A stretch of DNA of 64,000 nt from Patescibacteria group bacterium (GTDB lineage Bacteria > Patescibacteriota > Patescibacteriia > UBA9570), in contig JBAZWO010000001.1 of the NCBI GenBank assembly GCA_041660305.1, positions 43,969 through 107,968 of the forward strand, given 5' to 3'. Shown here in pieces: positions 12,684 to 62,553 of the stretch. Positions within the stretch are counted from its first letter, which is position 1. Every line of letters starts with the position of its first letter. Below the pieces are notes generated by a model. That model searched no databases and was not told the origin of the DNA. It saw only the letters and a program-made list of their open reading frames with translations. The translations under genes and the position numbers were made by a program.

Positions 12684-12730
12684 CCCCTTCCCTCTTTATA
12701 GGAGGGAAGGGGTTAGGGGTTGGAAGGTAG
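12684..12730. repeat. GC-rich polypyrimidine/polypurine hairpin element (locus 1)
   Basis: CCCCTTCCCTC-tttata-GGAGGGAAGGGG followed by ttaggggttggaaggtag. Confidence 0.8.
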
Positions 12731-12741
12731 AATATGGTTGT

Positions 12742-12903
12742 TTATTTAATCTCTTTATGCGGCGTATGTTTGCCACACTGTGGGCAGTGTTTTTTCAATT
12801 CTAACTTGCCAGCTTGATGAAGTTTTTTCTTATTTTTTTGTGTATAATAATTGGTAGTTTTACACTCTTTGCATTCTAATTTGGTTAACCGCTCTTGAGA
12901 CAT
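12742..12903 (-). CDS. rpmG: 50S ribosomal protein L33
   Basis: Absent from the ORF track (53 aa). Reads [53 protein letters not shown]. It has the CxxC...CxxC zinc ribbon and a typical L33 sequence. Confidence 0.85.
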
Positions 12904-12939
12904 ATTTTTTTAGTATAAATAAAGTAATTAGTAGTTAAT

Positions 12940-13014
12940 TGGAGCCACCTCAGGGATTTGAACCCAGGACCAACAGTTTACAAAACTGCTGCTCTACCAC
13001 TGAGCTAAGGTGGC
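12940..13014 (-). tRNA. tRNA-Thr (UGU anticodon)
   Basis: The reverse complement is GCCACCTTAGCTCAGTGGTAGAGCAGCAGTTTTGTAAACTGTTGGTCCTGGGTTCAAATCCCTGAGGTGGCTCCA. The acceptor and D stems are perfect and the anticodon loop is TTTGTAA. There is one U-U mismatch in the T stem. Confidence 0.85.
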
Positions 13015-13953
13015 TTAAGCCGCCACTATCGTAGAAGTTTTTTCTGATTGTGTCAACTCGGCAAACGCAATGTGCCAAAAATGGAACATAAACGTTTGAT
13101 AAACCCCTTTAATAGCTAGTAATAACACCATTAATATTAATGCGGCCAATATGCCAATAATAATCATTACTGCCCAAGCCGAGGCACTGTAAGTAATAAA
13201 ACCTAAAATAGCTGTAGGAATAATAATAATTAATATGCCTAAAATAGTAGCTAAACCAACTACTAAACCAGCTAACAATGTCATAAGATAACACAACACA
13301 TTATCACTTAACCGCGTTTTTAATAACTGCCAAGCGGATTTTATGCTTTCAATAATGCCTTGTTGTTGAAACACTAAAAATTGCCGAGCCTGCATTAAGA
13401 TAATTTGCACAGCAATACCAAATGGAATAAGTAATATTACTAATACAATTACAGCTGGAATCACTACAATTAAACCAACTATGGTAATGCCTAATAATAT
13501 TAACGGCACGGCAATAATCATAGCACCCAATACGATACTGCCTTTTATTACTATATGTAGGCCTAATACTTTCCAAAAATTAGCTAAACCAAATTTAAAT
13601 AATTCTCCAAATTTTAACGTTTGATTGGTTCTAGCTAACTGCGCACCACGAAACATGCCACCAACCGCAATATTATGTAACACTACACGAACAATAATTA
13701 AAGCAATCACTAATAAACCAAGAATAATTAACATCCACCACAAATTAGAGGTAATGTAATCCAGCGCATAATTAAATTCACTATTTACATCGTTATTCCA
13801 TAATTGCTCATAATTTGTACCTGAACCAATATTACCAGGAATGTTTACATTACAACCACTACTACTACCAGCCACAAACAACCCTAATAGCCACATTATT
13901 TTAGTGCGTTTAGTAGCCGCTAACGCTTGTTTTAATATGTTTGTGTATTCCAT
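13015..13953 (-). CDS. hypothetical polytopic membrane protein
   Basis: 312-aa ORF with about 6 hydrophobic helices. Its stop abuts tRNA-Thr. Confidence 0.5.
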   Translation of the reverse strand: MEYTNILKQALAATKRTKIMWLLGLFVAGSSSGCNVNIPGNIGSGTNYEQLWNNDVNSEFNYALDYITSNLWWMLIILGLLVIALIIVRVVLHNIAVGGMFRGAQLARTNQTLKFGELFKFGLANFWKVLGLHIVIKGSIVLGAMIIAVPLILLGITIVGLIVVIPAVIVLVILLIPFGIAVQIILMQARQFLVFQQQGIIESIKSAWQLLKTRLSDNVLCYLMTLLAGLVVGLATILGILIIIIPTAILGFITYSASAWAVMIIIGILAALILMVLLLAIKGVYQTFMFHFWHIAFAELTQSEKTSTIVAA

Positions 13954-15058: not shown

Positions 15059-15089
15059 ATAAAAAATATGGTATACTACTAACTAGTAT

Positions 15090-17108: not shown

Positions 17109-17134
17109 TTTTTTTAATATTATTTATTATATCT

Positions 17135-17479: not shown

Positions 17480-18026
17480 TATTGTATATATCGCCCTCGG
17501 TAGCAATATTGAGCCACGCTTAGATTATCTTACTAAAGCTAAAACTGCCTTATCCAAGCTTGGAATAATTACCAAATCATCTACTATTTACGAAACCGCG
17601 CCGTTAACCTTACCAAATCAATCATCATTAAATTGGTATCTTAATCAAGTTATTTGTTTTGCAGTAAATCAATCACCGCAACAGTTATTATTTACTTTAA
17701 AAAATATAGAACATCAATTAGGCCGTAATCCTAACCATGAACACTGGGCTGACCGAGAAATCGATTTAGATATCCTCTTGTATAATGATGAAATAATTGA
17801 TACGGTATCGTTGCACATTCCTCATTTAGAACTGGCTAACCGCCGGTTTGTGCTGGAACCCTTAGCTGAAATTGCGCCCGATTTAATTGAGCCGAGATCT
17901 AAGAAAACAATTAAAGGGTTGTTAAACGAACTACCTCTCCCCCTAACCCCCTCTCCTAATAGGAGAAGGGGAAAAATTAATTGCATTACTCCCTTTCCCC
18001 TGTTTAGGGGAAAGGGCTGGGGATAG
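17472..18026 (+). CDS. folK: 2-amino-4-hydroxy-6-hydroxymethyldihydropteridine diphosphokinase (HPPK)
   Basis: Reads VYIALGSNI.PR...L..A...L......S.IYET.P....Q..WYLN......REIDLDILLY........L.IPH..LANRRFVLEPL.EIAP. The last ~25 codons read into repeat locus 2. Confidence 0.85.
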   Translation: MSNIVYIALGSNIEPRLDYLTKAKTALSKLGIITKSSTIYETAPLTLPNQSSLNWYLNQVICFAVNQSPQQLLFTLKNIEHQLGRNPNHEHWADREIDLDILLYNDEIIDTVSLHIPHLELANRRFVLEPLAEIAPDLIEPRSKKTIKGLLNELPLPLTPSPNRRRGKINCITPFPLFRGKGWG

Positions 18027-18050
18027 AGGTAGGAATTTTAGAGGAGGGGG
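17931..18050. repeat. composite GC-rich hairpin element (locus 2)
   Basis: Outer inverted repeat CTACCTCTCCCC...GGGGATAGAGGTAG encloses two hairpins. These are CCCCCTCTCC-taata-GGAGAAGGGG and CCCTTTCCCC-tgttt-AGGGGAAAGGG. The core aattgcattact is shared, in inverted orientation, with locus 4. Confidence 0.85.
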
Positions 18051-18070
18051 AAATTCAACACTTATATAAT

Positions 18071-18619
18071 ATGAACCCAAAAAATATTGAACAATTAATC
18101 CAAAAACTAATTACAGAAATCGATCCGCAACCTCAGCGTGAAGGGTTACAAGATACACCGGCGCGAGTAGCGAGAAGCTATGAGAAATTATTCGGTGGTT
18201 ATGCCATGCAGCCGGAAGATTATTTAACATTTTTTGATAGTGAGCATTACGACGAAATGGTAACATGTTTAAATATCGATTTTTATTCCACCTGCGAACA
18301 TCATTTGCTTCCTTTTCATGGCAAAGCTTCCATTGGCTATATTCCAAAAAATAAAATTATCGGCTTATCTAAGTTACCTAGAATTGTAGAAATTTTTGCC
18401 CGCCGGTTGCAAAACCAAGAACGCTTAACTTCGCAAATTACCGAGTGTTTGGATGCAGCCCTACAAGCCAAAGGCATTGGCGTGATTTTAAAAGCCACTC
18501 ATTTATGCATGCAAGCCCGTGGTGTGGAAAAACAAAACACCGTGGTAACCACCTCCGCCTTTCGCGGTTTATTTAAAAATAATATGAATACTAGGAGTGA
18601 GTTTTTGAAGTTAATCTAG
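18071..18619 (+). CDS. folE: GTP cyclohydrolase I
   Basis: Reads REGL.DTP.RVA..Y..LF.GY, then FYS.CEHHLLPF.GKA.IGYIP, then RRLQ.QERLT.QI. Confidence 0.9.
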   Translation: MNPKNIEQLIQKLITEIDPQPQREGLQDTPARVARSYEKLFGGYAMQPEDYLTFFDSEHYDEMVTCLNIDFYSTCEHHLLPFHGKASIGYIPKNKIIGLSKLPRIVEIFARRLQNQERLTSQITECLDAALQAKGIGVILKATHLCMQARGVEKQNTVVTTSAFRGLFKNNMNTRSEFLKLI

Positions 18620-18702
18620 ACCCCACCCCAACCCTCCCCTGCAAGGGAGGGGGTAATTAATTATTCCCCCTCTTGCAGGAGGGGGTAAGGGGGAGGTCTA
18701 GA
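18615..18702. repeat. composite GC-rich hairpin element (locus 3)
   Basis: Outer repeat TCTAGACCCC...GGGAGGTCTAGA encloses CCCTCCCC-tgca-AGGGAGGG and CCCCCTC-ttgcag-GAGGGGG. Confidence 0.85.
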
Positions 18703-18712
18703 ATGTAACCTT

Positions 18713-19531
18713 ATGAAAAAAAATATTAAATTAATGGGCATATTAAATGTAACCCCAGATTCATTTTCAGACGGCGGTAAATTTTTTGGTAGAGACGCAT
18801 TGCAATGCGTCTCTACCACGGTAAAAAATATGGCAGTTGCTGGCGCGGATATTATTGATATCGGTGGAGAATCTTCCAGGCCAGGTTCAGAACCAGTTTC
18901 TGTAACAGAAGAATTAAACAGAGTAGTGCCTGTGTTAAAAGCTTTACACCGTAAGAACACGATATATCGTGTTCTTACATCTATCGACACCTATAAACCA
19001 GAGGTAGCCGCGGCGGCCATTAATTTATGCGCTAAAATGATTAACGATATTTCTGGCTTACGCAATCCACTCATGCGTAAAATAGCCGCTAAAACCAAAT
19101 GCCAAGTGGTAATTATGCACATGTTAGGCGAACCACATAATATGCAAAAACAGCCACGCTATAAAAACGTAGTGTTAGATATTATCAAGTTTTTTCAGCA
19201 ACAAATTAAATTAGCGGAACAAGCTGGTGTTAAAAGGAAAAATATTATTATTGATCCCGGAATTGGTTTTGGTAAAACCGTTAATCATAATCTGGAAATA
19301 CTACGTAACCTAAATAAATTCAAACAGGCTTTCCCTGATTTGTCATTACTAATTGGCGCTTCCAGAAAATCGTTTATCGGTAAATTAACCGGCGCCGCTG
19401 TAAATAACCGCCTGCCCGGTACCCTAGCCGTTCATTTATACGCCGCTCAACACGGCGCAGATATATTACGCGTGCACGATGTAACAGAACACCGGCAGGC
19501 CTTGTTTATTCTGCAAAAAATTATAGCTTGA
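18713..19531 (+). CDS. folP: dihydropteroate synthase
   Basis: Reads MGILNVTPDSFSDGG, then GADIIDIGGESSRPG, then IS.DT......A, then ND.SG, then IIDPGIGFGK, then SRKSFIG. Confidence 0.9.
   Translation: MKKNIKLMGILNVTPDSFSDGGKFFGRDALQCVSTTVKNMAVAGADIIDIGGESSRPGSEPVSVTEELNRVVPVLKALHRKNTIYRVLTSIDTYKPEVAAAAINLCAKMINDISGLRNPLMRKIAAKTKCQVVIMHMLGEPHNMQKQPRYKNVVLDIIKFFQQQIKLAEQAGVKRKNIIIDPGIGFGKTVNHNLEILRNLNKFKQAFPDLSLLIGASRKSFIGKLTGAAVNNRLPGTLAVHLYAAQHGADILRVHDVTEHRQALFILQKIIA
18789..18816. repeat. 28-nt perfect palindrome, copy inside the folP reading frame
   Basis: gtagagacgcattgcaatgcgtctctac is translated in frame as ..GRDALQCVST... The flanks attttttg / c..g..aaaaaatATG match the copy at 28598. 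Confidence 0.85.
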
Positions 19532-25415: not shown

Positions 25416-25569
25416 CCTACCTCACCTCCCGACCTCCTAATTCTACCTCTATCCCCAACCCTTTCCCCTAACCAGGGGAAAGGGAGTAATGCAATTTGAT
25501 TCTTCCCCCTCTCTCCTTAGAGGAGAGAGGGGGTTAGGGGGAGTGAGGTAGGAATTGGGGCGGGAGGTC
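25416..25569. repeat. composite GC-rich hairpin element (locus 4, inverse orientation of locus 2)
   Basis: The outer repeat is CCTACCTCAC..(several)..GTGAGGTAGG. The inner hairpins are CCCTTTCCCC-taacc-AGGGGAAAGGG and CCCCCTCTCTCC-ttaga-GGAGAGAGGGGG. The core agtaatgcaatt is the reverse complement of the locus 2 core. Confidence 0.85.
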
Positions 25570-25931
25570 TATTTCGGCTCTTGAAACGTAACCGTGACCG
25601 TATAAAAACTTTCGTCTTTAGGATAGGTAATATCCACTACCGGATGATAATGTTTAAACGCACTTTGCACTTTTTTACCAAGCGTCGCGGCTAATTTTTT
25701 ATTAACGATCCAATAAGTAATCACTGTAGCAGTAGCTTGCATTTTAACTAATACTGATTTTTCTGTAGAAAACTTTTTTAGGGCATTGGCTACCAAATGC
25801 AATAAATCAGCTTGATGTTCTACTAACTGCACGTTCACTAGTTTTAACGTACTGGCTGTAATATCATGATTTTTTGGATTTCTAAATAAAATCCCCTTAG
25901 GAACATTGCCTCGAAATTGTCTGGTTGACAT
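25569..25931 (-). CDS. hypothetical protein
   Basis: 120-aa ORF directly upstream of the helicase-nuclease on the same strand. No recognisable motif. Confidence 0.45.
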   Translation of the reverse strand: MSTRQFRGNVPKGILFRNPKNHDITASTLKLVNVQLVEHQADLLHLVANALKKFSTEKSVLVKMQATATVITYWIVNKKLAATLGKKVQSAFKHYHPVVDITYPKDESFYTVTVTFQEPK

Positions 25932-25992: not shown

Positions 25993-26059
25993 AGTAACCC
26001 CCGGGTTCCCGCCTACCTCCTTAGACGGAGTACGGCGGGCAGGTACCCCGGTGGGTTAC
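25993..26059. repeat. GC-rich rod-like hairpin (variant of the hairpin family?)
   Basis: GTAACCC-CCGGG-tt-CCCGCC-tac-CTCC-ttagac-GGAG-tac-GGCGGG-caggta-CCCGG-t-GGGTTAC, about 22 bp paired. Confidence 0.6.
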
Positions 26060-26079
26060 GAACGTGTTATAATAAATTC

Positions 26080-27402: not shown

Positions 27403-27737
27403 TTAAACATTGCTATAGTAATAATACTTTTGGCTTCGGCCTCCGAGGCTCTCGCTTTCCGCGAGAGCCGTTTTATATATCAAGGCTATCAATGCCTGCC
27501 AAATTTTTATAAACTCATCATTTGGTAAAGTTCTTATTTTACGTAACAACCTTTTATTGCTTATGGCTCTAATCTGTGTTAATAACACATAGTAATTTCT
27601 ATTTTTATAATTTAAAGGATAAAACCAGGTACCAAAGAACACCACCAAACTTCTCGTTCATGAAAAAAAGGCTTAATGGAGAAATTATTTAGTTGTTTCT
27701 TTAAAACATTCCAATTATCAAATTCTTTTATATACAT
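27403..27737 (-). pseudogene. frameshifted or internally deleted MazF/PemK-like toxin gene
   Basis: ATG at 27737 gives MYIKEFDNWNVLKKQLNNFSIKPFFHEREVWWCSLVPGFIL then a stop. A second frame carries the C-terminal part ..LLTQIRAISNKRLLRKIRTLPNDEFIKIWQALIAL. The GxNxGxEqdGk..RP middle block is missing. Confidence 0.5.
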
Positions 27738-27772
27738 AAAAACGCTCAATTATAAAAAGTGAGCGCTCAATT
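27738..27772 (-). promoter_or_regulatory. shared ~35-nt upstream motif containing the palindrome TGAGCGCTCA (copy 1)
   Basis: The minus strand reads ttgagcgctcactttttataattgagcgttttt directly before the MazF-like ATG. Compare 56580..56614. Confidence 0.6.
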
Positions 27773-28049
27773 AATTTGTAGTATAGCATATACCTGAGTT
27801 ATCCACAAGCTGGTTTGACAAGAATATTTTATTGTTTTAGTGTATTAATACGTTAATACAAATCTTATAATGATTATGAACTTACTAAATCCTGCTCAAC
27901 AACATCACCACACACTACCTTCTAGCTCGTGTCAGCAGATAGTGAGTTGATAATTTTTATTTTTTAAATGAACCCACTCCCCGCTCACATGAGCGGGGTT
28001 TTTGTATTCGCGACAAATGTGTCGCCAAACCCAAACTTGGAGGAAAAAA

Positions 28050-28582: not shown

Positions 28583-28597
28583 AATTAATTATTTTTT

Positions 28598-28625
28598 GTA
28601 GAGACGCAGTGCACTGCGTCTCTAC
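28598..28625. repeat. 28-nt perfect palindrome, copy in the thiB 5' leader
   Basis: gtagagacgcagtgcactgcgtctctac differs from the folP copy at two symmetric positions, so the palindrome is preserved. Confidence 0.85.
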
Positions 28626-28636
28626 GCCAAAAAAAT

Positions 28637-29629
28637 ATGAAAAAACTATTTTTTATTCCAATTATGTTACTCCTAGCGCTCGGCGCTGGTTGTAGCAAAA
28701 CAGCAACTTCAACTAACACGCCTGCTCAACCGCCAGAGCTAACGATATATACCTACGATAGCCTGGCGGCTGATTACGGCTTATTGCCAAAAATCATCCC
28801 ACAGTTTGAGCAAGCTAATAACGTCAAAGTAAATGTTGTTACTTTCCCCGATACCGGCACCATGCTTAATCAGTTGTTTTTAGAAAAAAATGATCCTCAA
28901 GCTGATGTGGTGCTGGGTTTAGACAATGTCAACCTAGAAAAAGCCAGCTCTGAACAATTGTTTACTGCTGAATTAACCCCGTTCGATTACGGTTATGTAG
29001 GTTTTGTATATGATTCTGAAGCTATCCAATTTTCTGAGCCTATTAGCTTAATGGATTTAACGAATGAACAATATAAAAATAAAATAATTATTGAACAGCC
29101 CGGTTTGTCTTCACCTGGCACACAGTTATTAATTTGGTCTTATCAAGCTCTCGGCGAAACACAGGCTAAAATATTCTGGGATAAAATGAAAGATAATGTA
29201 TTAACAGTAACACCAGATTGGAACACAGCTTATTACACTATGTTTATGGAAGGCGAAGCGCCTATTGTGCTAAGCTATTTAACCAGTCCGGCTTATCATA
29301 TCGATCAGGAAAATACTGAACGTTATAAAGCTATTCCCATAAAAGAAGGCTATTTAAAACAAACTGAATATGTCGCTATTATTAATAATTCTACCAAACC
29401 AGCCTTAGCTCAACAATGGATAAATTATATGATCTCCAATTCAGTACAAAAAGAAATACCTACCACTCAATGGATGTGGCCAATAGATGCCACCGTGTCA
29501 TTACCTGCCGCTTACAGTAAAATTATTACGCCAATGCCTGAACAAATTATGGCTTTACCGGCTGATAAAATTGCTAAAAATTATGCTACCTGGCTAAATG
29601 ATTGGAATACTACTTTTAACATTAAGTAA
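28637..29629 (+). CDS. thiB: thiamine ABC transporter substrate-binding lipoprotein
   Basis: Lipobox LALGAGC. Has a TbpA/ThiB-like periplasmic binding pattern (LTIYTYDS...VVLGLDN...). Lies downstream of the TPP riboswitch. Confidence 0.8.
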   Translation: MKKLFFIPIMLLLALGAGCSKTATSTNTPAQPPELTIYTYDSLAADYGLLPKIIPQFEQANNVKVNVVTFPDTGTMLNQLFLEKNDPQADVVLGLDNVNLEKASSEQLFTAELTPFDYGYVGFVYDSEAIQFSEPISLMDLTNEQYKNKIIIEQPGLSSPGTQLLIWSYQALGETQAKIFWDKMKDNVLTVTPDWNTAYYTMFMEGEAPIVLSYLTSPAYHIDQENTERYKAIPIKEGYLKQTEYVAIINNSTKPALAQQWINYMISNSVQKEIPTTQWMWPIDATVSLPAAYSKIITPMPEQIMALPADKIAKNYATWLNDWNTTFNIK

Positions 29630-29638
29630 CCCTTAAAA

Positions 29639-29713
29639 GCCCCCTAGCCCCCTAAAGGGGGAATTAACTATTTTTCCCCCTGCCCTTTAGGGAAGGGGGC
29701 TAGGGGGAAAGGC
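29639..29713. repeat. GC-rich hairpin element (locus 5)
   Basis: CCCCCTAGCCCCCT...AGGGGGCTAGGGGG is a 14-bp perfect inverted repeat with inner G/C-tract arms. It sits between thiB and thiP. Confidence 0.85.
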
Positions 29714-36567: not shown

Positions 36568-36804
36568 TTATTTATTTTTTTTAACTAGCTCGTTCATATC
36601 TTTTAGCATGGCATTAATAGTAGCTTCGTCTACCCCATGTAATTCGGCAATCATGCCAAAAGAATCAAACGATTGCCCAGGACAAAAAACACAAGCCACT
36701 TCGTCGCCAAAATACTTCAGCATAATTTCCTGTGCCTCGGGATATTCCCACAATACCTCACCAATTAATGTATCTTTGGTAATGTTTTTTTTCTTAGCTG
36801 CCAT
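36568..36804 (-). CDS. DUF1858-like small protein (redox disulfide-type CxxC)
   Basis: The start is moved to ATG 36804. Reads MAAKKKNITKDTLIGEVLWEYPEAQEIMLKYFGDEVACVFCPGQSFDSFGMIAELHGVD... Confidence 0.55.
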   Translation of the reverse strand: MAAKKKNITKDTLIGEVLWEYPEAQEIMLKYFGDEVACVFCPGQSFDSFGMIAELHGVDEATINAMLKDMNELVKKNK

Positions 36805-37343
36805 ATATTTTTTAATACTTCCGGCAAATAACGATAGGTTATTATTCCTACCGTAACCACCACCGGCAGTGTAATTAAATTTCCCACTAATTGATTTCTC
36901 AAAAATGGTAAAGCCGCTACATAACACTGCATTAAGCCGCTAAACGTATAGGAATACCAACCCATTTGCCACACGCCAAAATTAGTCCATAAATAAAAGA
37001 ATATTACACTTATGATGCCGCTACCTGTTAAGATTGCACTGTTTTTCCAAATAGCTGTTTTTACCACTTTTTTCGACCATAACGCATTACTTAATCCAAT
37101 CACTGCCCAAGCACTCCAAGTATAAGCAAAAATCATGCTATTCCCAATAAACATATCGGTGCCAATTACCGAGCCTAACCCTACTAATAATCCTAAATAT
37201 GGCCCTAATAAGGCTCCGGCTAATACCGTAGTGGCCGTTAATGTTTCATAGTTTTGCCCATGCATAACCATGCGGCTAATTACCGCAAAAACAATTAAAA
37301 TAACCGCCGTAATAATGTTTTTTTTGTTGAATGATTTCATCAT
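36765..37343 (-). CDS. hypothetical 5-6 TM membrane protein (candidate vitamin/cofactor transporter by context)
   Basis: The start is moved to ATG 37343 (MMKSFNKKNIITAVILIVFAV...). The ORF-track N-terminus translates repeat locus 6. It lies immediately downstream of nrdJ. Confidence 0.55.
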   Translation of the reverse strand: MMKSFNKKNIITAVILIVFAVISRMVMHGQNYETLTATTVLAGALLGPYLGLLVGLGSVIGTDMFIGNSMIFAYTWSAWAVIGLSNALWSKKVVKTAIWKNSAILTGSGIISVIFFYLWTNFGVWQMGWYSYTFSGLMQCYVAALPFLRNQLVGNLITLPVVVTVGIITYRYLPEVLKNIWQLRKKTLPKIH

Positions 37344-37361
37344 ATAATTAATTGAATTATA

Positions 37362-37405
37362 CCCCCTTCTCCTGGATAGGAGAAGGGGGCTAGGGGGATG
37401 AGGTC
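37362..37405. repeat. GC-rich hairpin element (locus 6)
   Basis: CCCCCTTCTCC-tggat-AGGAGAAGGGGG followed by ctagggggatgaggtc. Confidence 0.85.
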
Positions 37406-37407
37406 TG

Positions 37408-39657
37408 TTAAGCACATTTTGAATAGCCGCACCCAAAGCACGCTAAACAACCTTCCTGCATGGCTAACACGCTATGACATTCCGGGCACTCTGGAGAAAT
37501 GCCCAAATTCGCAATCGAAGCAGACGCTTCAATCGTTTTGTATTTTGATTCTGCTTTCACAACAATTTCTTGGTCTTGTTTTAATTCATCCGGTGCTTTT
37601 TTCTTATCTAATTGTTCAAGATGTTGAATAAACACTTGGGCAATCGCATCGGGAATTGATAAAATCATGCCGCGTTTGCCGAACGATGGCATTGGTCCAC
37701 GAATACCTTTTATTTGCTCAATAATAGCCGTTACTGGAATACCAGCGCGTAATGATAATGAGACTAAGCGGCAAATCGCTTCCGCTTCTTCGGCAAACAC
37801 GCCACCAGCTTTGCCAATAGTAGCAAATACTTCAAACGGCTGGTTTTGATCATCATGATTAATAGTAACAAACATAGTACCGTAACCAGTTTTAATTTTG
37901 TAAGTCATACCTGGTACACACTCTGGCCTAGAACGTGGTGAAATAATTTCCCGAGGTTGTATTTTAGTTTCTGGTTTTTTCGCATCTAAACTACTTAAAA
38001 CCGCTTCACTGCGTGAACCATCACGAAAATACGTAACCCCTTTACAGCCTAAATCGTAGGCTTTCATATATAAATCTTTCACCGCCGCCATGGTATGTTC
38101 ATTTGGTGCGTTCACGGTTTTGCTAATACTGGAATCAACGTAAGACTGAATTAACGCCTGCATTGTAACGTGCTCATCGGGCGTTAAGGCTTTAGCGTTA
38201 ATAAAGTAATCCGGTATATCTTTAGCCTCTGGGTTACTGTCTTTCCAAGCTTTATATAATGGATGATATACCGTATGCAAACCTAAGCGATCTTTGCGTT
38301 GATAAGCAAAATCATAGACCGGCTCGATACCAGAACTTACTCCGGCCAAAATACTAGTGGTACCGGTTGGCGCTTGGGTTAATAATACCGCATTACGAAT
38401 CCCATAACGACCAATCATTTCCTGTATATGATTTGGTAAATTCTTAATAAATTTACCTTGCGCGTATTTAGTGCGATCAAACATGGGAAAAGCGCCTTTT
38501 TCACGCGCTAATTCTACACTAGCTAGATACGCCTCATCACGAATTACTTGGTGCATTTTCTTTACCACTTCCAATGACTCTGAACTACCATAACGCACTT
38601 TCATTTTTATTAAGGCATCAGCTAAGCCCATGGTACCTAAACCGGTGCGCCGAATATTATGCTGCACTTCTCGATTTTCCGGAAAAAAATACTCTGTAGT
38701 ATCAATTACGTTATCTAAAAATCTTATCGCAATACGCACTACTTCTGCTAAGCGATCATAATTAAACGTACCAGCCTCATTTACAAAATTAGCTACATTA
38801 ATTGAACCAAGATTACACACCGACCAAGCGCCTAACCCTTGTTCACCGCACGGATTAGTAGCAATGATTTTTTCAAAATACCAGGTATTCGATTCTTTAT
38901 TATAGCGCTCTTTAAACATAATGCCTGGTTCCCCCGCCGCCCAAGCTGATTCACAAATTAAATCCCATAATTGGCGTGCTGGAATAGTGCGATACACTTT
39001 ACCACTCCATTGCAAATCCCATAGTTTATCTTGCTTTACTGCTGCCATGAAGGCATCGGAAATACATACTGATAAATTAGCATTGGTAACCTGACCCATG
39101 GTACGTTTCACGGTAATAAACTCCTCAATATCTGGATGATCAATATCCAACATAAGCATTAACGCACCCCGGCGTGAACCGCCTTGAATTATTAACCCAG
39201 TAGCAAACGAATACATACCGCCAAATGATACTGCACCAGAAGCGGTGCCGTGCACGCCTTTTACATAAGCTCCCCGTGGGCGAATAGAAGATAAATTAAC
39301 CCCTACTCCACCGCCTCGGCTCATAATTTCCATCATTAATTTAATATTATCCACAATCCCACCGCGCGTATCATCGGGCGATGGAATTACAAAACAATTA
39401 TAAAACGTTAATGGCACGCCCGAGCCGGCTCCGGCCAAAATTCTCCCCCCCGGCACATAATCAAACCCCTGCAAAATAGAATAAAACTGCCGCTCCCATT
39501 CTGTCCGCAACACCTCGGTATGTTCGGCTTTAGCAATAGCTTTAGCTACTCGTTTCCACACTTCCTCTGGGGTTTGTTCAATGCTATTACCTTTTTCGTC
39601 CTTTAAGGTATAGCGATCAAAAAACACTTGTTTGGCTAAGCCAGTTAACTCGTACAT
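37408..39657 (-). CDS. nrdJ: adenosylcobalamin-dependent (class II) ribonucleotide reductase
   Basis: 749 aa. Reads ...ATNPCGEQ.L....CNLGSIN..., and TQAPTGT.S, and has the C-terminal Cys cluster CPECHSVLAMQEGCLACFGCGYSKC. Confidence 0.9.
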   Translation of the reverse strand: MYELTGLAKQVFFDRYTLKDEKGNSIEQTPEEVWKRVAKAIAKAEHTEVLRTEWERQFYSILQGFDYVPGGRILAGAGSGVPLTFYNCFVIPSPDDTRGGIVDNIKLMMEIMSRGGGVGVNLSSIRPRGAYVKGVHGTASGAVSFGGMYSFATGLIIQGGSRRGALMLMLDIDHPDIEEFITVKRTMGQVTNANLSVCISDAFMAAVKQDKLWDLQWSGKVYRTIPARQLWDLICESAWAAGEPGIMFKERYNKESNTWYFEKIIATNPCGEQGLGAWSVCNLGSINVANFVNEAGTFNYDRLAEVVRIAIRFLDNVIDTTEYFFPENREVQHNIRRTGLGTMGLADALIKMKVRYGSSESLEVVKKMHQVIRDEAYLASVELAREKGAFPMFDRTKYAQGKFIKNLPNHIQEMIGRYGIRNAVLLTQAPTGTTSILAGVSSGIEPVYDFAYQRKDRLGLHTVYHPLYKAWKDSNPEAKDIPDYFINAKALTPDEHVTMQALIQSYVDSSISKTVNAPNEHTMAAVKDLYMKAYDLGCKGVTYFRDGSRSEAVLSSLDAKKPETKIQPREIISPRSRPECVPGMTYKIKTGYGTMFVTINHDDQNQPFEVFATIGKAGGVFAEEAEAICRLVSLSLRAGIPVTAIIEQIKGIRGPMPSFGKRGMILSIPDAIAQVFIQHLEQLDKKKAPDELKQDQEIVVKAESKYKTIEASASIANLGISPECPECHSVLAMQEGCLACFGCGYSKCA

Positions 39658-40959: not shown

Positions 40960-41202
40960 TAACTTAACTATTTCAACCACAGACGGAGAAATGCGCGCTC
41001 CCGAGGTTGCTACCGAAGAAAGTTCCGAATACTTGGAACAAGTAGGATTAGCTGGGTGGCCCCCAGAAACAAAATAGCTCAATGAGTGTCCTGAGGCTTG
41101 CACCGGCAAGATCGAAGGAAATCGGGGTGGTACCACGGGGCTTAATAAATCCTCGTCCCTTACTAGAAACCAAGTGTTTCTAGTTGGAGACGAGGGTTTT
41201 TT
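40960..41202 (+). promoter_or_regulatory. T-box leader (tRNA-sensing riboswitch) with antiterminator/terminator
   Basis: The T-box core is GGAAATCGGGGTGGTACCACGGGG (41117-41140). The antiterminator pairs GGG/CCC and ACGGGG/CCUCGU around the 7-nt bulge UGGUACC. The competing terminator spans 41151-41202 (CCTCGTC...GACGAGG plus T6). Confidence 0.75.
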
Positions 41203-41230: not shown

Positions 41231-42304
41231 ATGATCAAACATTTATTACCAACTAACCTGTCATTTAATGACCATTTTGCAAATATAGTAAACATTACTC
41301 AAACAGCTCACCAAGCTGTGCTTAAACACTACACTCAGGCTGGCTTAACTTATGTAGATGTACCAGCCATTGTTGGTATTACAGGCGCTTGTGAAAATGT
41401 AGACACATTATTCAAAATACAATCACATCAGCCTGGCTTGAATCTGTTTTTTACCCAAACCGGTCAATTATCTTTAGAACAAGCTCTGCAGGTTTTTCCT
41501 GGCGCATGTACAATTATCCACTCTGGTCGAGACGAAGAGATTGAAGATGAGCGTCATTTACGCCAATTTCGCTTAATTGAAGAAGAATTTGATTGTACTA
41601 TGATTGGCATGACCCGCGAAACTTACAACGAACAAGCTATGTTCGAAAATCTCCTGCAACATATTCAACAAGCCGTGCAAGCCATGTTCAGTGCGATAAT
41701 AAAAGATCATAGCGATATTCTTGCACAAGCTTACCAACACAATGTACAGAACATTAAGTTAGCCAGCACTCAGCCGTTCTTACGCATTCGTTATGAAGAT
41801 ACCATACAATTACTCAACCATAACGGTTTTACAGATCTCCGATTTGGCGATGATTTGCACAGCAAACATGAAGCAAAAATAGTACAACTACTGAATACAT
41901 CCGGCACAGAATTACCTGTATTTATTACGCACTATCCTAAAGAAATTAAATTTTTCAACATGAAAGTATCAAGCATTGATGCACGAGTATGTTTGTCGGC
42001 CGATTTGATTCTGCCATACTCTGGCGAGGCTACCGGCTCGGCTGTCCGTGAACATGATTTTACTAAACTAAACGAACGTCTGCTTGCTTCAACTATGTAT
42101 AAATTACATCGGGAACGAGGTGGCACCTATGAAGATTTTAAATGGTACTTAACTATTATGGAACAAAAACTTACCAATCCACACGCCGGTTATGGTATTG
42201 GTAACGACCGGATTATGCAATATATTTTAGGTCTAACAGACATTCGCCAAGCTTCGATATTTACATTGCTCAATCAACAAACCGGGGATTGGCTAAGAAA
42301 ATAA
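41231..42304 (+). CDS. AsnRS-like class II aaRS catalytic-core paralog lacking an anticodon-binding domain (archaeal-type asparagine synthetase A-like)
   Basis: Motif 2-like ERHLRQFRLIEEEF. Also has GEATGSAVREHD and motif 3-like YEDFKWYL......PHAGYGIGNDRIMQYILGLTDIRQ. At 357 aa it has no N-terminal OB-fold. Confidence 0.65.
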   Translation: MIKHLLPTNLSFNDHFANIVNITQTAHQAVLKHYTQAGLTYVDVPAIVGITGACENVDTLFKIQSHQPGLNLFFTQTGQLSLEQALQVFPGACTIIHSGRDEEIEDERHLRQFRLIEEEFDCTMIGMTRETYNEQAMFENLLQHIQQAVQAMFSAIIKDHSDILAQAYQHNVQNIKLASTQPFLRIRYEDTIQLLNHNGFTDLRFGDDLHSKHEAKIVQLLNTSGTELPVFITHYPKEIKFFNMKVSSIDARVCLSADLILPYSGEATGSAVREHDFTKLNERLLASTMYKLHRERGGTYEDFKWYLTIMEQKLTNPHAGYGIGNDRIMQYILGLTDIRQASIFTLLNQQTGDWLRK

Positions 42305-56415: not shown

Positions 56416-56459
56416 AGTTTCGCTGTCACCTCCTTAAAAAGATTACAATTCATAAAAAA

Positions 56460-56488: not shown

Positions 56489-56500
56489 ATTTTTACACAA

Positions 56501-56562
56501 CCCCTTCTTCTACTCCTAACAACCTACCTCATCCCCAGCCCTTCTCCTCTCAGGAGAAGGGA
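56501..56562. repeat. GC-rich hairpin element (locus 7)
   Basis: ...CCTACCTCATCCCCAGCCCTTCTCC-tctc-AGGAGAAGGG. It is the inverted partner of locus 8. Confidence 0.85.
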
Positions 56563-56579
56563 GTTATACTACTATTATA

Positions 56580-56614
56580 TTGAGCGCTCACGTTTTTTTT
56601 AATTGAGCGTTTTT
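56580..56614 (+). promoter_or_regulatory. shared ~35-nt upstream motif containing the palindrome TGAGCGCTCA (copy 2)
   Basis: ttgagcgctcacgttttttttaattgagcgttttt ends 13 nt before the DUF559 ATG. Confidence 0.6.
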
Positions 56615-56627
56615 ATATTTATTTTTT

Positions 56628-57005
56628 ATGTTTATTCGTCCGCAACAATCTAACACTATTGAATTACAACGCCATTTACAATATATCGCTAAACAATTTC
56701 GTAAAAAACCAACCGTAGCTGAACAAAAATTATGGCAATATTTACGAAATCGTAAACTAAATGGTTTAAAATTTAATCGACAATATCCTATTTATCAATA
56801 CATTGCTGATTTTTATTGCCATGAATACAAACTAATCATTGAGGTTGATGGAGATATTCATAAATTACAACAACAACGTGATGAGAGTCGAGATTTAATG
56901 TTAAAAAAATACGGCTATACCGTATTACGTTTTAATAATGAACAAGTGATAAATAATATTGATTATGTGTTAAAACAAATTAAATCTACTCCCCCTTCTC
57001 CTTAG
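56628..57005 (+). CDS. DUF559 (Vsr-like) endonuclease-domain protein
   Basis: Reads T.AE..LW..LRNRKL.G.KF.RQ.PI..YI.DFYC.E.KLIIEVDG..H........D..R...L...GY.VLRF.N..V. The last codons read into repeat locus 8. Confidence 0.8.
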   Translation: MFIRPQQSNTIELQRHLQYIAKQFRKKPTVAEQKLWQYLRNRKLNGLKFNRQYPIYQYIADFYCHEYKLIIEVDGDIHKLQQQRDESRDLMLKKYGYTVLRFNNEQVINNIDYVLKQIKSTPPSP

Positions 57006-57073
57006 AGGAGAAGGGGGTTGGGGGGATGAGGTAGGATGTTTAGATGGGAAAAGTGGGCTAGGGGGAGAGGTAG
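56991..57073. repeat. GC-rich hairpin element (locus 8)
   Basis: CCCCCTTCTCC-ttaga-GGAGAAGGGGG-ttggggggatgaggtagg, followed by a second half-element gggctagggggagaggtag. Confidence 0.85.
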
Positions 57074-57075
57074 TT

Positions 57076-57414: not shown

Positions 57415-57433
57415 ATGGCTGTGGCTTAATTTT

Positions 57434-58915: not shown

Positions 58916-58924
58916 AATGAATAA

Positions 58925-59464
58925 TTATTTTTTATAAATAGTAAATTGCGTAAAAGGCCAAACTCGAATCCAAACTCGGCCAATAATACTAGCTTGTTTA
59001 ATTGGACCAAATCGTCTGGAATCCTGGCTATGTTCACGATTATCCCCTACTACAAAATATTCATCACTGCCTAATTTTATATTCCGATAACCAACAAAAC
59101 TAGTGGTAACCACTTGGGCTGATAAATAAACTGTTTCATCTAATAATTGATCATTAATGTATATTTTACCATCATTAATTTTTACTGTTTCCCCTGGTAA
59201 ACCTATTAACCGTTTAATAAAAAACTCACTCGGTTTTTGTGGATTACGCAACACAATTACTTCACCTCGTTGCGGTGGATTAAACCGATAACTCAACTCA
59301 TCAATAATCAAATAATTATAATCAGCAAAATTTGGCTCCATGGAAGCACCAATTACATAAAACGGCTGAATTAAAAAATAGCGTACCGGAATGATAATCG
59401 CCAGAGAGATAACTACGATTTTCACTACCTCTAAAATAAAGCTGGTGGTTTGTTTAGAAAACAT
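58925..59464 (-). CDS. lepB: signal peptidase I
   Basis: Has GASMEPNF (catalytic Ser box), IKR.IGLPGE.V and GDNREHSQDSR. The start is moved to MFSKQ... (59464); the ORF track begins at 59530. Confidence 0.85.
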   Translation of the reverse strand: MFSKQTTSFILEVVKIVVISLAIIIPVRYFLIQPFYVIGASMEPNFADYNYLIIDELSYRFNPPQRGEVIVLRNPQKPSEFFIKRLIGLPGETVKINDGKIYINDQLLDETVYLSAQVVTTSFVGYRNIKLGSDEYFVVGDNREHSQDSRRFGPIKQASIIGRVWIRVWPFTQFTIYKK

Positions 59465-59524
59465 AACTAGTTCAGCATACAATACGCGGTTGAAAAAATC
59501 AACTATTACCGCTATACTGGCCAT

Positions 59525-61072
59525 ATGCAAAAAACTGATCCGCCAGAACAGTCCATTTCAACGCCATCTCTTACCTCACTCACCCGCTGGCAGCTAATTC
59601 GCCAGTTCTTTACCTGGAAAAAAATAGCCTTATTGTTAACCCTATTATTAATATGCGGCGTAACGGGTATATATGTTTTATTAAACCATACGGCCAAACA
59701 AATTATTCAAACTAACCAACCAGTATCGCTTTGGCAACAAATTGGGCAGCTGTTTGGCAATAACAATACTCCATTACAAGGTGAAGCTGAAGATAGGATT
59801 AATGTATTATTATTAGGTATTGCCGGTAGCGGCCATGATGGCAGTCAGTTAACCGATACTATTATTGTTGCTAGCATTAAACCATCTACCAAACAAATCG
59901 CGCTATTATCACTCCCGCGTGATTTACAAGTTAAATACTACAACGACAAAAACCCAAAATGGTACGAATACCACAAAATAAATAGCGCCTATGCTTTTGG
60001 TGGAATCGATTTAACTGAAGAAAAAATCACTGATGTAACTGGTTTACCAATACATTATTATATAGTGCTAGATTTTTCTGGCTTTAAAAAAATTATCGAT
60101 GACATTGGCGGTTTAGATGTTACTATTGAACGAACATTCACTGGGATGTATGGCACAAAAGATTTAGCCACCCCCTGCCCCACAGCCCAGTTACGCCACC
60201 TAAACGATGGTGAATACTGTGCTATTACGTTTCAAGCCGGCCAACAACATTTAGCTGGAGAAGCCGCTTTGATGTTCGCTCGCATTCGTAAATCCGATCC
60301 ACGAGCTAATAATAACCCTTTAGACATGGATGATTTCGGTCGTTCCCAACGTCAACAACAAGTACTGGAAAGTTTTCGAGCGCACGTGCTATCAGCCAAT
60401 ACATTACTACGTCCTGATCGTGTTGCCGCTATATTAAATGATTTAGGTGATAATTTAAAAACTAATTTACAAATTTGGGAAATGGGCAGATTAGCGCAAT
60501 GGACATTAAGTGTTCCTAAAGAACAAATTACATCTAAGGTGATTGATGACAAAACTACTAATTTAGTAGAAACGGTTAATGAACACAGCGCTTCTTATGT
60601 GGTGCCCCGAGCTGGTAATGGTGATTTTTCCGAAATTCAAAAATTAGCAGCTAACATTTTTATTACTCCTGTAGAAACTACTAATACCAACTCAATAGCT
60701 GCTACTAACACTAATGTTATTACTGAATCTACCGAACCAGCTAAAGTGCAAATATTAAATGGCACTAATAAAACTGGTTTAGCGGCTAAAACAGCTGAAA
60801 CGTTACGACCATTGGATATTGTGATAATTAATGTAAATAACGCACCAGAACCGCGGCCTGTTAGTACTACTTTAATTTATGATTTAACCACTGGTCAACG
60901 ACCAGCTGCTCTAACCGCTTTAACCACAGCCACTCAACTTACCGTAGCCACCACGACACAACTGGCTGATTTTAAAGCCTTAAATGATCCGGATCAACTT
61001 ATTAATAATACCGTTGATTTTATTATCGTCTTAGGTAGTGACGTCATTAACCAACCAGTAACTATTCAATAA
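59525..61072 (+). CDS. LytR-CpsA-Psr (LCP) family cell-envelope phosphotransferase
   Basis: TM anchor, then RINVLLLG.......G.QLTDTIIVASI.P......LLS.PRDL, then a C-terminal LytR_C-like region (VQILNGTNKTGLA). Confidence 0.8.
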   Translation: MQKTDPPEQSISTPSLTSLTRWQLIRQFFTWKKIALLLTLLLICGVTGIYVLLNHTAKQIIQTNQPVSLWQQIGQLFGNNNTPLQGEAEDRINVLLLGIAGSGHDGSQLTDTIIVASIKPSTKQIALLSLPRDLQVKYYNDKNPKWYEYHKINSAYAFGGIDLTEEKITDVTGLPIHYYIVLDFSGFKKIIDDIGGLDVTIERTFTGMYGTKDLATPCPTAQLRHLNDGEYCAITFQAGQQHLAGEAALMFARIRKSDPRANNNPLDMDDFGRSQRQQQVLESFRAHVLSANTLLRPDRVAAILNDLGDNLKTNLQIWEMGRLAQWTLSVPKEQITSKVIDDKTTNLVETVNEHSASYVVPRAGNGDFSEIQKLAANIFITPVETTNTNSIAATNTNVITESTEPAKVQILNGTNKTGLAAKTAETLRPLDIVIINVNNAPEPRPVSTTLIYDLTTGQRPAALTALTTATQLTVATTTQLADFKALNDPDQLINNTVDFIIVLGSDVINQPVTIQ

Positions 61073-61077
61073 AATAT

Positions 61078-62433
61078 ATGTCTAACTCCAGCACAACCCC
61101 AATCGTAGCCATTGTTGGCCGCACTAATGTTGGTAAATCCACTTTATTTAACCGCCTAACGGAAACTGACAAAGCGATTATTTCCCCTATCGAAAATACT
61201 ACGCGTGATCAAAATCGCGGCAAAATTCATTGGAAAGGCTACATGTGCGAAGTAATTGATACTGGTGGTTTAGACACCGCCACGCAAGATTCGCTTGGCG
61301 CCGCTATTAAAGATCAAGTCCAAAAAGCTATACAAGTAGCTGATGTAATTTTATTTGTAGTAGATGGTAAAACTGATTTAATGCCACAAGATAAACAAAT
61401 CAGCCAATTGCTACGCAACACTAAGAAACCAATTGTATTGTGCATTAATAAAATTGAACGACATAATACTAGTGCTGTAGCGTTAGCTAATTACGCTAAA
61501 CTGCCTTACTCAGGAATTACTTGCTCAGCTAAAAACGGTTCTGGCACCGCTGAATTATTAGACACTTTATTTGAACTTTTACCAAAAATAGCTAGTATCA
61601 CTAGCCAGACTAATTCTATTTTGTTAACCCTGGTAGGCCGGCCGAATGTTGGAAAATCATCGTTATTTAACGCGTTAATCGGCGAAGATCGAGTAATTGT
61701 TAACGAACAAGCTCATACCACGCGCGATATTAACGACACGGAGATTATTTATAAAGATCAACCGTTTACTATTTTGGATACGGCCGGAATTCGTAAACAC
61801 AGTAATATGGGCAAAGCGACAGATTTTGTAATTGAAAAACGCAGTGTCCGAGCCGCGTTGGATTCCATCACCAAAGCTGATATAGTAATTTTACTATTAG
61901 AAGCCCAGTTACGCGTTAGCGCTCAAGACAAAACTCTGGTAGATTATGCCAACCGTAAAGGTAAAAGTGTAATTATCGCCATAAATAAATGGGATTTAGT
62001 GCCAGATAAAACGCCTAGCACGATTAATGCTTACCGAAAATATTTTGCGCACAATATTAACTTTGCCGATCATCTACCAATTATTTTTATTTCCGCTCAA
62101 CAAAAACAACGCATTACGCAAATATTAGACGAAGCTATTAATGTATATAAAAATCGTTTTCGAACTATTCCACAAGATACTTTAAATGATATTTTATTTC
62201 GTATTCAAGAACGTGGTCCAAAACAAAAACAAGTAATCACGTTTGGTCAAACGAAAAAACCGTTGTTATTAAAATCGCTCGATCAAAGTAATGTAAACCC
62301 ACCCACGTTTCGTTTAGTAACTACTAACCCAAAAAATGTTGCCCCCGCTATTATTAATCAACTCGAGCGTGATTTACGTTACACTTGCAATTTTGAAGGT
62401 GTGCCAATTATGATAAACGTGAGAAATTCGTAG
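61078..62433 (+). CDS. der: ribosome-associated GTPase Der/EngA
   Basis: Two G domains (GRTNVGKSTLFN...DTGG...NK.E and GRPNVGKSSLFN...DTAG...NKWD) plus a KH-like C-terminus. Confidence 0.9.
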   Translation: MSNSSTTPIVAIVGRTNVGKSTLFNRLTETDKAIISPIENTTRDQNRGKIHWKGYMCEVIDTGGLDTATQDSLGAAIKDQVQKAIQVADVILFVVDGKTDLMPQDKQISQLLRNTKKPIVLCINKIERHNTSAVALANYAKLPYSGITCSAKNGSGTAELLDTLFELLPKIASITSQTNSILLTLVGRPNVGKSSLFNALIGEDRVIVNEQAHTTRDINDTEIIYKDQPFTILDTAGIRKHSNMGKATDFVIEKRSVRAALDSITKADIVILLLEAQLRVSAQDKTLVDYANRKGKSVIIAINKWDLVPDKTPSTINAYRKYFAHNINFADHLPIIFISAQQKQRITQILDEAINVYKNRFRTIPQDTLNDILFRIQERGPKQKQVITFGQTKKPLLLKSLDQSNVNPPTFRLVTTNPKNVAPAIINQLERDLRYTCNFEGVPIMINVRNS

Positions 62434-62553
62434 ACCTCTATCCCCCCAACCCCTCCCTCCTCTAAATAACCTACCTCACCCCCTAACCCCCTCTCCTCAA
62501 TGAACATCCTACCTCTCTCCCCCAACCCCTCCCTCCTCTCAGGAGGGAGGGGA
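62433..62553. repeat. composite GC-rich hairpin element (locus 9)
   Basis: Three CTACCTC-type ends precede CCCCTCCCTCC-tctc-AGGAGGGAGGGG. The spurious ORF 62379..62570 is its translation. Confidence 0.85.

Follow-up and report, generated by a model that had tools for sequence, protein, structure and literature searches.

A 64-kb stretch of DNA from an uncultured Patescibacteria genome (contig JBAZWO010000001.1, positions 43,969 to 107,968; hereafter the window) was found to carry, at nine loci, one dispersed family of short GC-rich repeats in which each hairpin is followed by a mirror-symmetric third domain; one copy encloses an intact gene for a DUF559 (YcjD-like) endonuclease. Judged by their layout, the loci are repeats of the BoxC/PIT/TM kind, belonging to the wider GC-rich triplex motif (TM) class and not to the Escherichia coli subtype; new here is the presence of BoxC/PIT/TM repeats in a new phylum, with stem sequences of their own. 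An earlier reading of the same DNA (the first-pass annotation) had described the hairpins and missed both the third domain and the BoxC/PIT identity. We consider the chances about even that these loci are copies of a selfish element acting at the level of DNA, with triplex-forming ends, a DUF559 nuclease as partner and gene-less derivatives.

Repeat units with three mutually constrained domains

At least 13 hairpin units and about four hairpin-less modules occur at the nine loci, far above chance. A scan for perfect hairpins with one arm at least 90% pyrimidine (or purine) and at least 60% G+C recovered ten with a C/T arm and a matching G/A arm of 7–13 bp (at 12683, 17991, 18632, 18666, 25459, 25505, 37362, 56539, 56991 and 62526), all of which fall at the reported loci, and imperfect hairpins were found at 17947, 29639 and 29676. 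The motif GGGGYTRGGGG occurs 10 times in the window versus 0.04 expected, the tail pattern GGGGYTRGGGG-N0-6-GAGGT seven times versus 0, and GAGGTAG 17 times versus 2.6. All nine loci proposed at first pass thus carry the element, mostly in short intergenic positions as described. The hairpin at 25993, offered as a tenth variant copy, has arms that are not purine/pyrimidine-pure, lacks a tail and reaches a z score of only -2.5; it does not belong to the family. The elements had also been called the most GC-rich sequence present; they reach a G+C (GC) content of ∼0.62–0.63 in 60-nucleotide (nt) segments, but the segments at 10458, 10174 and 25998 score higher.

The units share one order in a single orientation, namely a pyrimidine (Y) arm, a first loop, a purine (R) arm, a turn and a G-rich tail. 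Arms in the window measure 5–13 bp, first loops 3–7 nt and second loops, or turns, 3 nt (TTA, TTG, CTA, CTG or TAA), and the tails end in GAGGT(A/C); the hairpin design annotated earlier therefore stands, with a loop range of 3–7 nt in place of 4–6 nt. The G-rich tail mirrors the purine arm, with T or A facing each A (for example, arm AGGAGAAGGGGG and tail GGGGGATGAGGT), a rule that fits 68 of the 73 positions beyond the G-runs in the 13 window units. When all loci collected were considered (184 distinct units), 96% of tail positions matched the reversed purine arm, compared with 75 ± 1.1% when tails were shuffled among units (2000 permutations). Structure-anchored scripts were used for this arm and tail analysis; in a MAFFT alignment the left arms came out staggered, arms and loops being of variable length.

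Arms and tails covary (AGAG with T/AGAG, AAGA with ATGA, AGGG with T/AGGG, AAGG with TTAG/TTGG, and AAAG with ATAG), and in the 33 distinct arms the base pairs are almost exclusively C:G or T:A, the pyrimidine standing on the 5′ side. Among 135 matches found by the tail only, the hairpin ends exactly at the tail in 59, versus 0.4% of shuffles. Mirror symmetry and arm covariation together mean that the three domains, Y-R-R(mirror), are mutually constrained, and this is the design of a class II purine-motif intrastrand triplex. The possibility of triplex formation, raised at first pass, thereby became the key to the family, the more so as a like architecture, that of the E. coli repeats, forms a triplex in vitro.

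The BoxC repeats of E. coli date in the literature from 1992 (Bergler 1992; Hoyne & Maher 2000; Holder et al. 2015, PMC4666352), and were renamed PIT (potential intrastrand triplex) elements and later TMECO ‘triplex motifs’. The TMECO consensus is CCCTCNCCC-N3-6-GGGNGAGGG-N3-GGGNGAGGG, with second loops TTA or CCG; copies are solo or form inverted A+B pairs, K-12 has 23 of them between genes, 3610 were counted over 262 proteobacterial genomes, and Microcystis, Anabaena, Nostoc and Neisseria contain many GC-rich triplex motifs (PMC4666352). An isolated TMECO strand forms a triplex in vitro as seen by circular dichroism and nuclear magnetic resonance (PMC4666352). The units described here resemble these repeats in the succession of C-rich arm, 3–6 nt loop, G-rich arm, 3-nt loop and mirror G-rich arm, in their second loops (TTA, CCG, CTA, TTG), in an AGAG core with TGAG in the third strand, in showing no terminator behaviour, and in a copy number that varies between close relatives. 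Window units have the class II layout (defined as Y-R-RH with stems of at least 6–8 nt and short loops), and they too occur solo and as closely spaced inverted pairs of two types, in intergenic positions and with no strand or orientation rule. Unlike TMECO, the window stems (CCCCCTTCTCC, CCCTTTCCCC and others) lie outside the strict consensus in both sequence and register (for example, CCCCCTTCTCC/GGAGAAGGGGG/GGGGGATGAGG) and are longer, up to 13 bp, and the host is a 37% GC member of the Patescibacteria, whereas the published cases cited are from Proteobacteria and Cyanobacteria. Triplex formation by the window units is predicted from their symmetry and covariation. Searches of Rfam at gathering thresholds and at E≤5 returned no family, only sub-threshold matches to generic hairpins (miRNA precursors).

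A scan of species-representative genomes with the tail pattern gave at least 120 loci, with a hairpin directly before the tail in roughly half of them. Among the matches listed, the unit is present in at least nine phyla and in genomes of 30% to 72% GC, the taxa including Anaerolineae and other Chloroflexota, Bacteroidota, Cyanobacteria, Planctomycetota, Alpha-, Gamma- and Deltaproteobacteria, Armatimonadota, and Patescibacteria (Nomurabacteria, Amesbacteria). Units are near-identical over 40 nt across these phyla, in AT-rich and GC-rich genomes alike; the ending GTAG is specific to the window genome, with GAGGTC or GAGGTT in other phyla. Gene-less inverted pairs are present in several of the phyla. 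Predicted viral contigs carry units (29 of 126 tail matches), and no DUF559 gene was seen in the stretches of unit-bearing viral contigs examined. Tandem unit arrays were observed in other phyla (L010:1-260, L094:4480-4660, L011 and L063:7930-7975; collected loci are cited by L numbers), with a period of ∼78 or 33–36 nt or as runs of the heptamer TTAGGGG, the latter resembling cyanobacterial STRR-type repeats.

A DUF559 endonuclease gene bracketed by units

The segment 56501-57073 is one 573-bp element, composed of a reverse unit, a leader, the DUF559 open reading frame (ORF), a forward unit and a further module; 56501 and 56991, annotated earlier as two separate elements, are in fact its two inverted ends. 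The left end (56501-56561, reverse strand) has its hairpin at 56539-56561 and its third strand at 56524-56535, and the right end (56991-57073, forward strand) consists of a unit at 56991-57034 followed by a second, hairpin-less module of purine arm, turn and third strand that extends to 57073; the mirror match is 7/7 at both ends. The inverted repeat runs ∼22–23 nt past the units, with 23 nt at the left end pairing with 57035-57057 (36 nt, 75% complementary). Between the ends, on the forward strand, lie a leader (56565-56622) with a putative promoter (TATACTAC...ATTGAGCGCTCAC...TAATTGAGCGTTTTTAT) and the gene itself (56628-57005), which encodes 125 aa and is intact, its TAG stop codon falling in the loop of the right-end hairpin. 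An inverted second copy of the ∼58-nt promoter-like block was noted at 27730-27785, upstream of a frameshifted ORF remnant (27403-27749, reverse strand) that is putatively PemK/MazF-like, as judged by eye from its motif.

The encoded protein matches Pfam family PF04480 with a score of 133.6 bits (cut-off 20.6; E=3e-39) and covers positions 4-105 of the 109 in the profile, its nearest solved structure is from Neisseria gonorrhoeae (PDB 3hrl, E=1.5e-20), and residues E72, D74 and H78 are invariant in our DUF559 alignment (A1). The full-length match and the conserved acidic/histidine motif identify it as a DUF559 protein. DUF559 falls in one PD-(D/E)XK clade with Vsr and I-Bth0305I (PMC3424549, PMC3239194), and the example of I-Bth0305I demonstrates that Vsr-fold nucleases can act as homing endonucleases (Taylor et al. 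2011, PMC3239194). The window gene resembles that system in its Vsr-related fold, as a small selfish gene with presence/absence polymorphism, and in insertion without target duplication. Unlike I-Bth0305I, which has NUMOD/helix-turn-helix DNA-binding domains, resides in a group I intron or intein and has a unique target, it is predicted to be a bare 125-aa nuclease domain, free-standing between multicopy, potentially triplex-forming repeats. Membership of a defence system was considered and rejected, since only weak PADLOC and PHROG matches were obtained.

The presence of DUF559 inside the composite is not a coincidence. At four Bacteroidota loci that had been collected by the tail pattern alone (L055, L056, L020 and L084), a DUF559 homologue is directly bracketed by units, and no other ORF family recurs beside units, bar the class I tRNA-synthetase host genes (mainly leuS) that DUF559 interrupts or borders and that belong to the same cluster. 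In the reverse test, a metagenome scan with the DUF559 alignment yielded 80 loci (41–59% identity, GC 0.30–0.70), at which unit density was 2.39 per kb within 250/200 nt of DUF559 versus 0.12 per kb farther out; a unit was present in 44 of 107 DUF559-adjacent gaps versus 2 of 22 other gaps at the same loci (p=0.003). The arrangement also occurs in complete genomes of cultured organisms, namely Pseudanabaena ABRG5-3, Picosynechococcus PCC 7002 (plasmid pAQ6), Azospirillum brasilense and N. gonorrhoeae, with a bracketed DUF559 gene within a DUF1156 gene in Synechocystis B12 and between paaD and paaZ in Deinococcus psychrotolerans. The published account of BoxC/PIT reports no associated gene, our literature search found no publication linking DUF559/YcjD to these repeats, and both the gene-bearing composite and its association across phyla appear to be unreported.

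Comparisons of filled and empty sites show insertion. In the Bacteroidota leuS gene of L056, a block of unit, DUF559 gene and unit lies in frame between ...KEWV and KRETSTMP (L056:6922-7410); the leuS of L020, 67% identical there, is uninterrupted at this site and has its own in-frame unit-DUF559-unit block at another position (L020: about 6640-7085). Gene and flanking units were thus inserted together, in a single block bounded by the unit termini. As a consequence of being in frame, the nuclease domain would be translated as part of LeuRS, and the L056 LeuRS has an additional footprint of a solo unit (..ADPSPSEKGRGAV..). Among Patescibacteria, folK and folE overlap or lie 3 nt apart without an element in three relatives (FolE 77–81% identical), where the window has a 102-nt composite in place of the last ∼10 folK codons; the same relatives have pabB/pabC between folE and folP, and the window only an 88-nt composite. 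The der and pth genes overlap by 4 nt in relative L205, again with no element, whereas relative L204 has a differently built composite and the window a three-module array at this junction. The slot of the window DUF559 element is occupied by an FG-GAP gene in L204, and no units at all were found in the related loci L334, L336 and L205. Polymorphism of the kind for which a check was suggested at first pass is seen at the empty folK/folE and der/pth junctions. Presence/absence at a conserved site, as expected of a homing gene, is seen in leuS (L056 versus L020), at E. coli ycjD and in the window slot versus L204.

In E. coli K-12, YcjD ends in ...RRSPSP and a degenerate unit holds the ycjD stop codon in its loop; the 3′ end of ycjD is partly duplicated downstream, and a full TMECO unit stands ∼150 nt downstream, before fabI (envM), the place of the first BoxC description. 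From the loci L329 (K-12, 1351040-1351830) and L333 (UPEC129), ycjD with BoxC was seen to stand in place of the eefRABCD efflux operon, and a palindrome with ACCTCA...TGAGGT ends (TCACCTCATTCTGACAA..TTGTCAGAATGAGGTGA) lies just upstream of ycjD. The gene is present in 3378 of 5426 complete E. coli genomes; strains of phylogroups A, B1 and C and of sequence types (ST) ST69 and ST182 have it in the sapF-fabI slot. That slot holds eefRABCD in B2, E, and D strains except ST69/ST182 (PMC12817139). TMECO copies, with counts taken from the supplement of Holder et al. (PMC4666352) and phylogroups assigned by us, number 19–24 in A, 27–30 in B1, 1–2 in B2, 11 in O157 (E), 12–15 in D and 6 in IAI39 (F). 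The unit-rich state of the ycjD-carrying phylogroups A and B1 versus the ycjD-less B2 is suggestive, and fits ycjD as the driver.

Remaining copies and setting within the window

Single units lie on the forward strand at two places. The first (12684-12730), between rpmG (12742-12903, reverse strand) and tRNA-Trp, consists of pyrimidine arm CCCCTTCCCTC, loop, purine arm GAGGGAAGGGG, turn TTA and third strand GGGGTTGGAAGGTAG, with a mirror match of 6/7; the second (37362-37405, mirror match 7/7), between nrdJ and a DUF6580 gene, gives ORF 36765-37436 a false N-terminus, the DUF6580 match beginning at residue 38. An array of three reverse modules (62433-62552, reverse strand) lies between der and pth, with a full hairpin only in 62509-62552.

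The gene-less composites at 17931, 18615, 25443 and 29639, to which no strand is assigned, each combine two different hairpins, and as single-stranded DNA they fold into an outer stem formed by the two ends plus two inner hairpins (folding energies -26 to -36 kcal/mol, z -3.8 to -6.8). The composite at 17931-18032 (-27.4 kcal/mol, z -5.1) is made up of a reverse unit (17931-17971), the spacer AAAAATTAATTGCATTACT and a forward unit (17991-18032), with a partial purine-arm remnant beyond, to ∼18050. Between folE and folP, the 88-nt palindrome at 18615-18702 has TCTAGACC...GGTCTAGA ends (-29.3 kcal/mol, z -5.9). At 25416-25570, a core (25443-25551; -36.3 kcal/mol, z -6.8; mirror matches 6/7 and 7/7) repeats the 17931 copy as its reverse complement and has an additional partial tail on either side, at 25416-25442 and 25552-25570. 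The short-stem composite at 29639-29712, of the GCCCCCTAG...CTAGGGGGC type and located between thiB and thiP (-26.5 kcal/mol, z -3.8), resembles a cyanobacterial subtype (cf. L326, L327). These inverted arms and folds uphold the earlier description of composites with CTACCTC...GAGGTAG ends and MITE/BIME-like pairing, and the relation claimed between the second and fourth loci was recovered as 65 nt of 89% complementarity between 17968-18032 and 25443-25507. The conserved spacer was considered as proof of origin by deletion from a gene-bearing form; the window spacer resembles the L055 leader and some other spacers, but across 17 composites spacers vary too much to serve as such.

As had been annotated, reading frames extend into the elements and so gain spurious heads or tails: in folK the HPPK domain reaches only to residue 136 of 184 and the final 32 codons are element sequence, and the DUF6580 ORF and the DUF559 stop codon described above are further cases. 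The Rickettsia palindromic elements invite comparison with the in-frame leuS copies of L056 and L020 and with the folK tail, but they are unrelated in sequence and are not known to have triplex symmetry or an associated nuclease gene. A 120-aa ORF (25569-25931, reverse strand) was noted with the 25416-25570 composite on one side and, on the other, the imperfect 68-nt hairpin at 25993-26060, which is not of the Y/R type. It had no match in Pfam, PADLOC or PHROGs and only a far sub-threshold one in NCBIfam, and so found no support as a second cargo gene; it may be such a gene or an orphan.

The host belongs to the candidate phyla radiation, its closest named relatives by the Der and FolE proteins being the Kerfeldbacteria, and the window has a GC content of 37.5%. 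Three independent assemblies are 100% identical across their common part, and a short-read contig of the same strain (L002) ends at 57017 and 62499, inside two elements, as expected of a multicopy repeat. The gene context is PTPS-folK-folE-folP, thiB-thiP after a thiamine pyrophosphate (TPP) riboswitch, nrdJ, der-pth and rpmG-tRNA-Trp, in agreement with the genes named at first pass.

Several further features of the window were recorded. A GC-rich island at ∼8700-10650 (0.5–0.63 versus 0.37 for the window) looks like foreign DNA; it contains a methyltransferase gene and a high-GC ORF (∼10121-10503) with a strong GGAGG site upstream, its ORFs overlap on both strands, and it has no Rfam match. 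A sub-threshold match to a T-box leader at 40971-41163 (37.8 bits against a gathering score of 93, E=8e-5) lies upstream of a class II aminoacyl-tRNA synthetase-like gene (41231-42304). Tandem repeats of 12 nt occupy 2101-2268 within a gene for an ice-binding-like/DUF7507 surface protein, and a 180-nt direct repeat (88% identity, 805 nt apart) occurs near the start of the window, at 274-453 and 1079-1258. A second palindromic repeat family, GTAGAGACGCAnTGCAnTGCGTCTCTAC, was found at 18783-18829 and 28592-28638 and also at L091:1514-1539; one window copy is in frame in folP (...GGKF-FGRDALQCVSTT-VKNM...), in place of part of a conserved helix, and the other stands between the TPP riboswitch and thiB, with a T-run and an A-run on its flanks.

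Explanations for the spread of the units

In the selfish-element explanation that we favour, a single DNA strand would form the hairpin and fold its tail back into the major groove, giving a class II purine-motif intrastrand triplex of G·G.C, A·A.T and T·A.T triplets. A small element would have two inverted units as its ends, and its complete form would be 56501-57073 with its DUF559/Vsr-fold endonuclease gene, and the gene-less pairs (17931, 18615, 25443 and 29639), solo units (12684 and 37362) and tandem array (62433) would be derivatives or conversion products. The DUF559 nuclease, as the candidate enzyme, may nick or cut at or near units by recognising their sequence or structure; the break would be repaired by copying from another unit-bearing copy, in a homing-like gene conversion without target-site duplication, and such copying would spread the units, sometimes with the gene, and leave local rearrangements behind. 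A further and tentative proposal, to which we give somewhat less than an even chance, is that short DUF559/YcjD proteins are the missing mobilising enzyme of BoxC/PIT/TM, which would then be a minimal mobile element in at least eight or nine phyla, made of a bare Vsr-fold nuclease gene between triplex-forming ends and spread by nick- or break-induced copying. More speculatively, the second-loop variants CCR, CTR and TTR could be a C-to-T deamination series in a Vsr-like C(T/C)WGG context and mark the nuclease site.

A number of observations weigh against this explanation. Holder et al. saw no transposase, integrase or mobile-element association of the E. coli copies, and the triplex was undetected in vivo by dimethyl sulphate footprinting (PMC4666352). 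E. coli O157 has 11 TMECO copies and no ycjD, so that units can exist without ycjD at that locus, and shared ancestry confounds the trend across phylogroups. Under a strict detector, ∼40–50% of DUF559 loci have no unit, and 12 of the 13 window units are not beside the DUF559 gene. Flank layouts around DUF559 vary between inverted units, direct repeats of the whole core and units upstream only, which also fits recombination at fragile sites. The protein, at only 125 aa, has no separate DNA-binding domain, and our literature search found no biochemical activity for any short DUF559 protein. The target-site duplications to be looked for according to the first-pass annotation were not consistently seen at the leuS, folK or window junctions, and no defined cleavage site could be derived there.

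The main rival, which we think rather unlikely, is that the units are fragile sites or landing pads, whose non-B structures stall replication and which multiply or decay by slippage, template switching and illegitimate recombination with no dedicated enzyme, DUF559 being one small selfish or accessory gene that tends to land and stay at such recombinogenic places. TMECO loci are indeed associated with raised local genomic variability and with no mobility genes (Holder et al. 2015, PMC4666352), and hairpin-less tandem modules (62433; L010, L094) look like slippage products. Fragility would also account for the variable flanks of DUF559, for the composite that marks a deletion site between folE and folP where relatives have pabB/pabC, and for ycjD and BoxC in place of eefRABCD. 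Local slippage alone, however, leaves unexplained the near-identity of 40-nt units in at least nine phyla; only DUF559 recurs beside units, the leuS gene insert came with both its units as one in-frame block ending exactly at the unit termini, and the like bracketed layout is found in Deinococcus and Synechocystis. A host function, in which units are kept for the chromosome (replication pausing, nucleoid protein binding or recombination hot spots) and DUF559 is a Vsr-like repair or processing nuclease acting on their structures, is in our view improbable. The conservation of ycjD at one locus across phylogroups A, B1 and C, the three-way covariation, indicating that a fold or symmetry is maintained, and the role of Vsr, the founding relative, as a repair nickase all speak for it. 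The units nevertheless vary in presence among close relatives (unit-free Patescibacteria loci; 1–2 copies in B2 E. coli), their insertions truncate or extend host genes (the folK tail and leuS insert), and they follow no positional rule relative to genes, which are marks of selfish DNA and not of a housekeeping signal.

Mobilisation as REP or REPIN sequences, that is, REP-like palindromes moved by an HUH tyrosine transposase (RAYT) whose gene lies elsewhere in the genome, had been raised with the suggestion of a RAYT partner and is very improbable. The likeness to REPIN-RAYT systems (Bertels & Rainey 2011, PMC3116915) is considerable, comprising short intergenic palindromes, inverted doublets that fold into long single-stranded hairpins, many gene-less copies, one repeat-flanked nuclease gene and no target-site duplication, and the window ends GAGGTAG contain GTAG. 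The 43 ORFs scanned against Pfam in the window, which is 64 kb of the genome, contain no Y1/RAYT domain (PF01797), however, and the unit-flanked gene, a hallmark of RAYT, is in every lineage examined the Vsr-fold (PD-(D/E)XK-like) DUF559 nuclease, not an HUH Y1 transposase. GTAG endings are limited to the window genome, REP families are lineage-specific where this unit crosses phyla, and the window-family units have a third, presumably triplex-forming domain. Derivation as a MITE from an insertion sequence with a DDE transposase was rejected: the inverted ends are present, but there is no consistent target-site duplication and no transposase, and the parent-like copy carries DUF559. We give hardly any credence to an RNA-level role as intrinsic terminators or 3′-end mRNA stabilisers between co-oriented genes, another suggestion of the first-pass annotation. 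Strong GC-rich hairpins in short intergenic gaps recommend it, as does the hairpin at 12683-12713, which on the reverse strand is followed by a T-run and is the sole terminator-like copy. Only this one of ∼13 hairpins has such a T-run, though; orientation relative to transcription is unbiased (6 versus 4), several copies lie inside operons whose genes overlap in relatives, and others are in frame within leuS. In E. coli, neither promoter nor terminator activity was seen for PIT elements, and RNA reportedly does not form purine-motif triplexes (PMC4666352). Action at the DNA level is favoured because of this absence of triplexes in RNA, the lack of orientation bias and the single terminator-like copy.

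In annotation, the units matter because they give rise to spurious ORFs, to false N- or C-termini and to essential genes with in-frame insertions, and in metagenome assembly because they break contigs. The repeat family is here extended to the candidate phyla radiation, Bacteroidota, Deinococcota and others. The link between BoxC and DUF559 makes the origin, spread and function of BoxC/PIT/TM, and the function of the widespread YcjD/DUF559 family, testable in E. coli K-12. If the proposed role of DUF559 is correct, YcjD would acquire its first function, and the family would be the first mobile element with ends defined by triple-helix symmetry, one that leaves gene-less pairs and solo units behind and can insert in frame in essential genes such as leuS.

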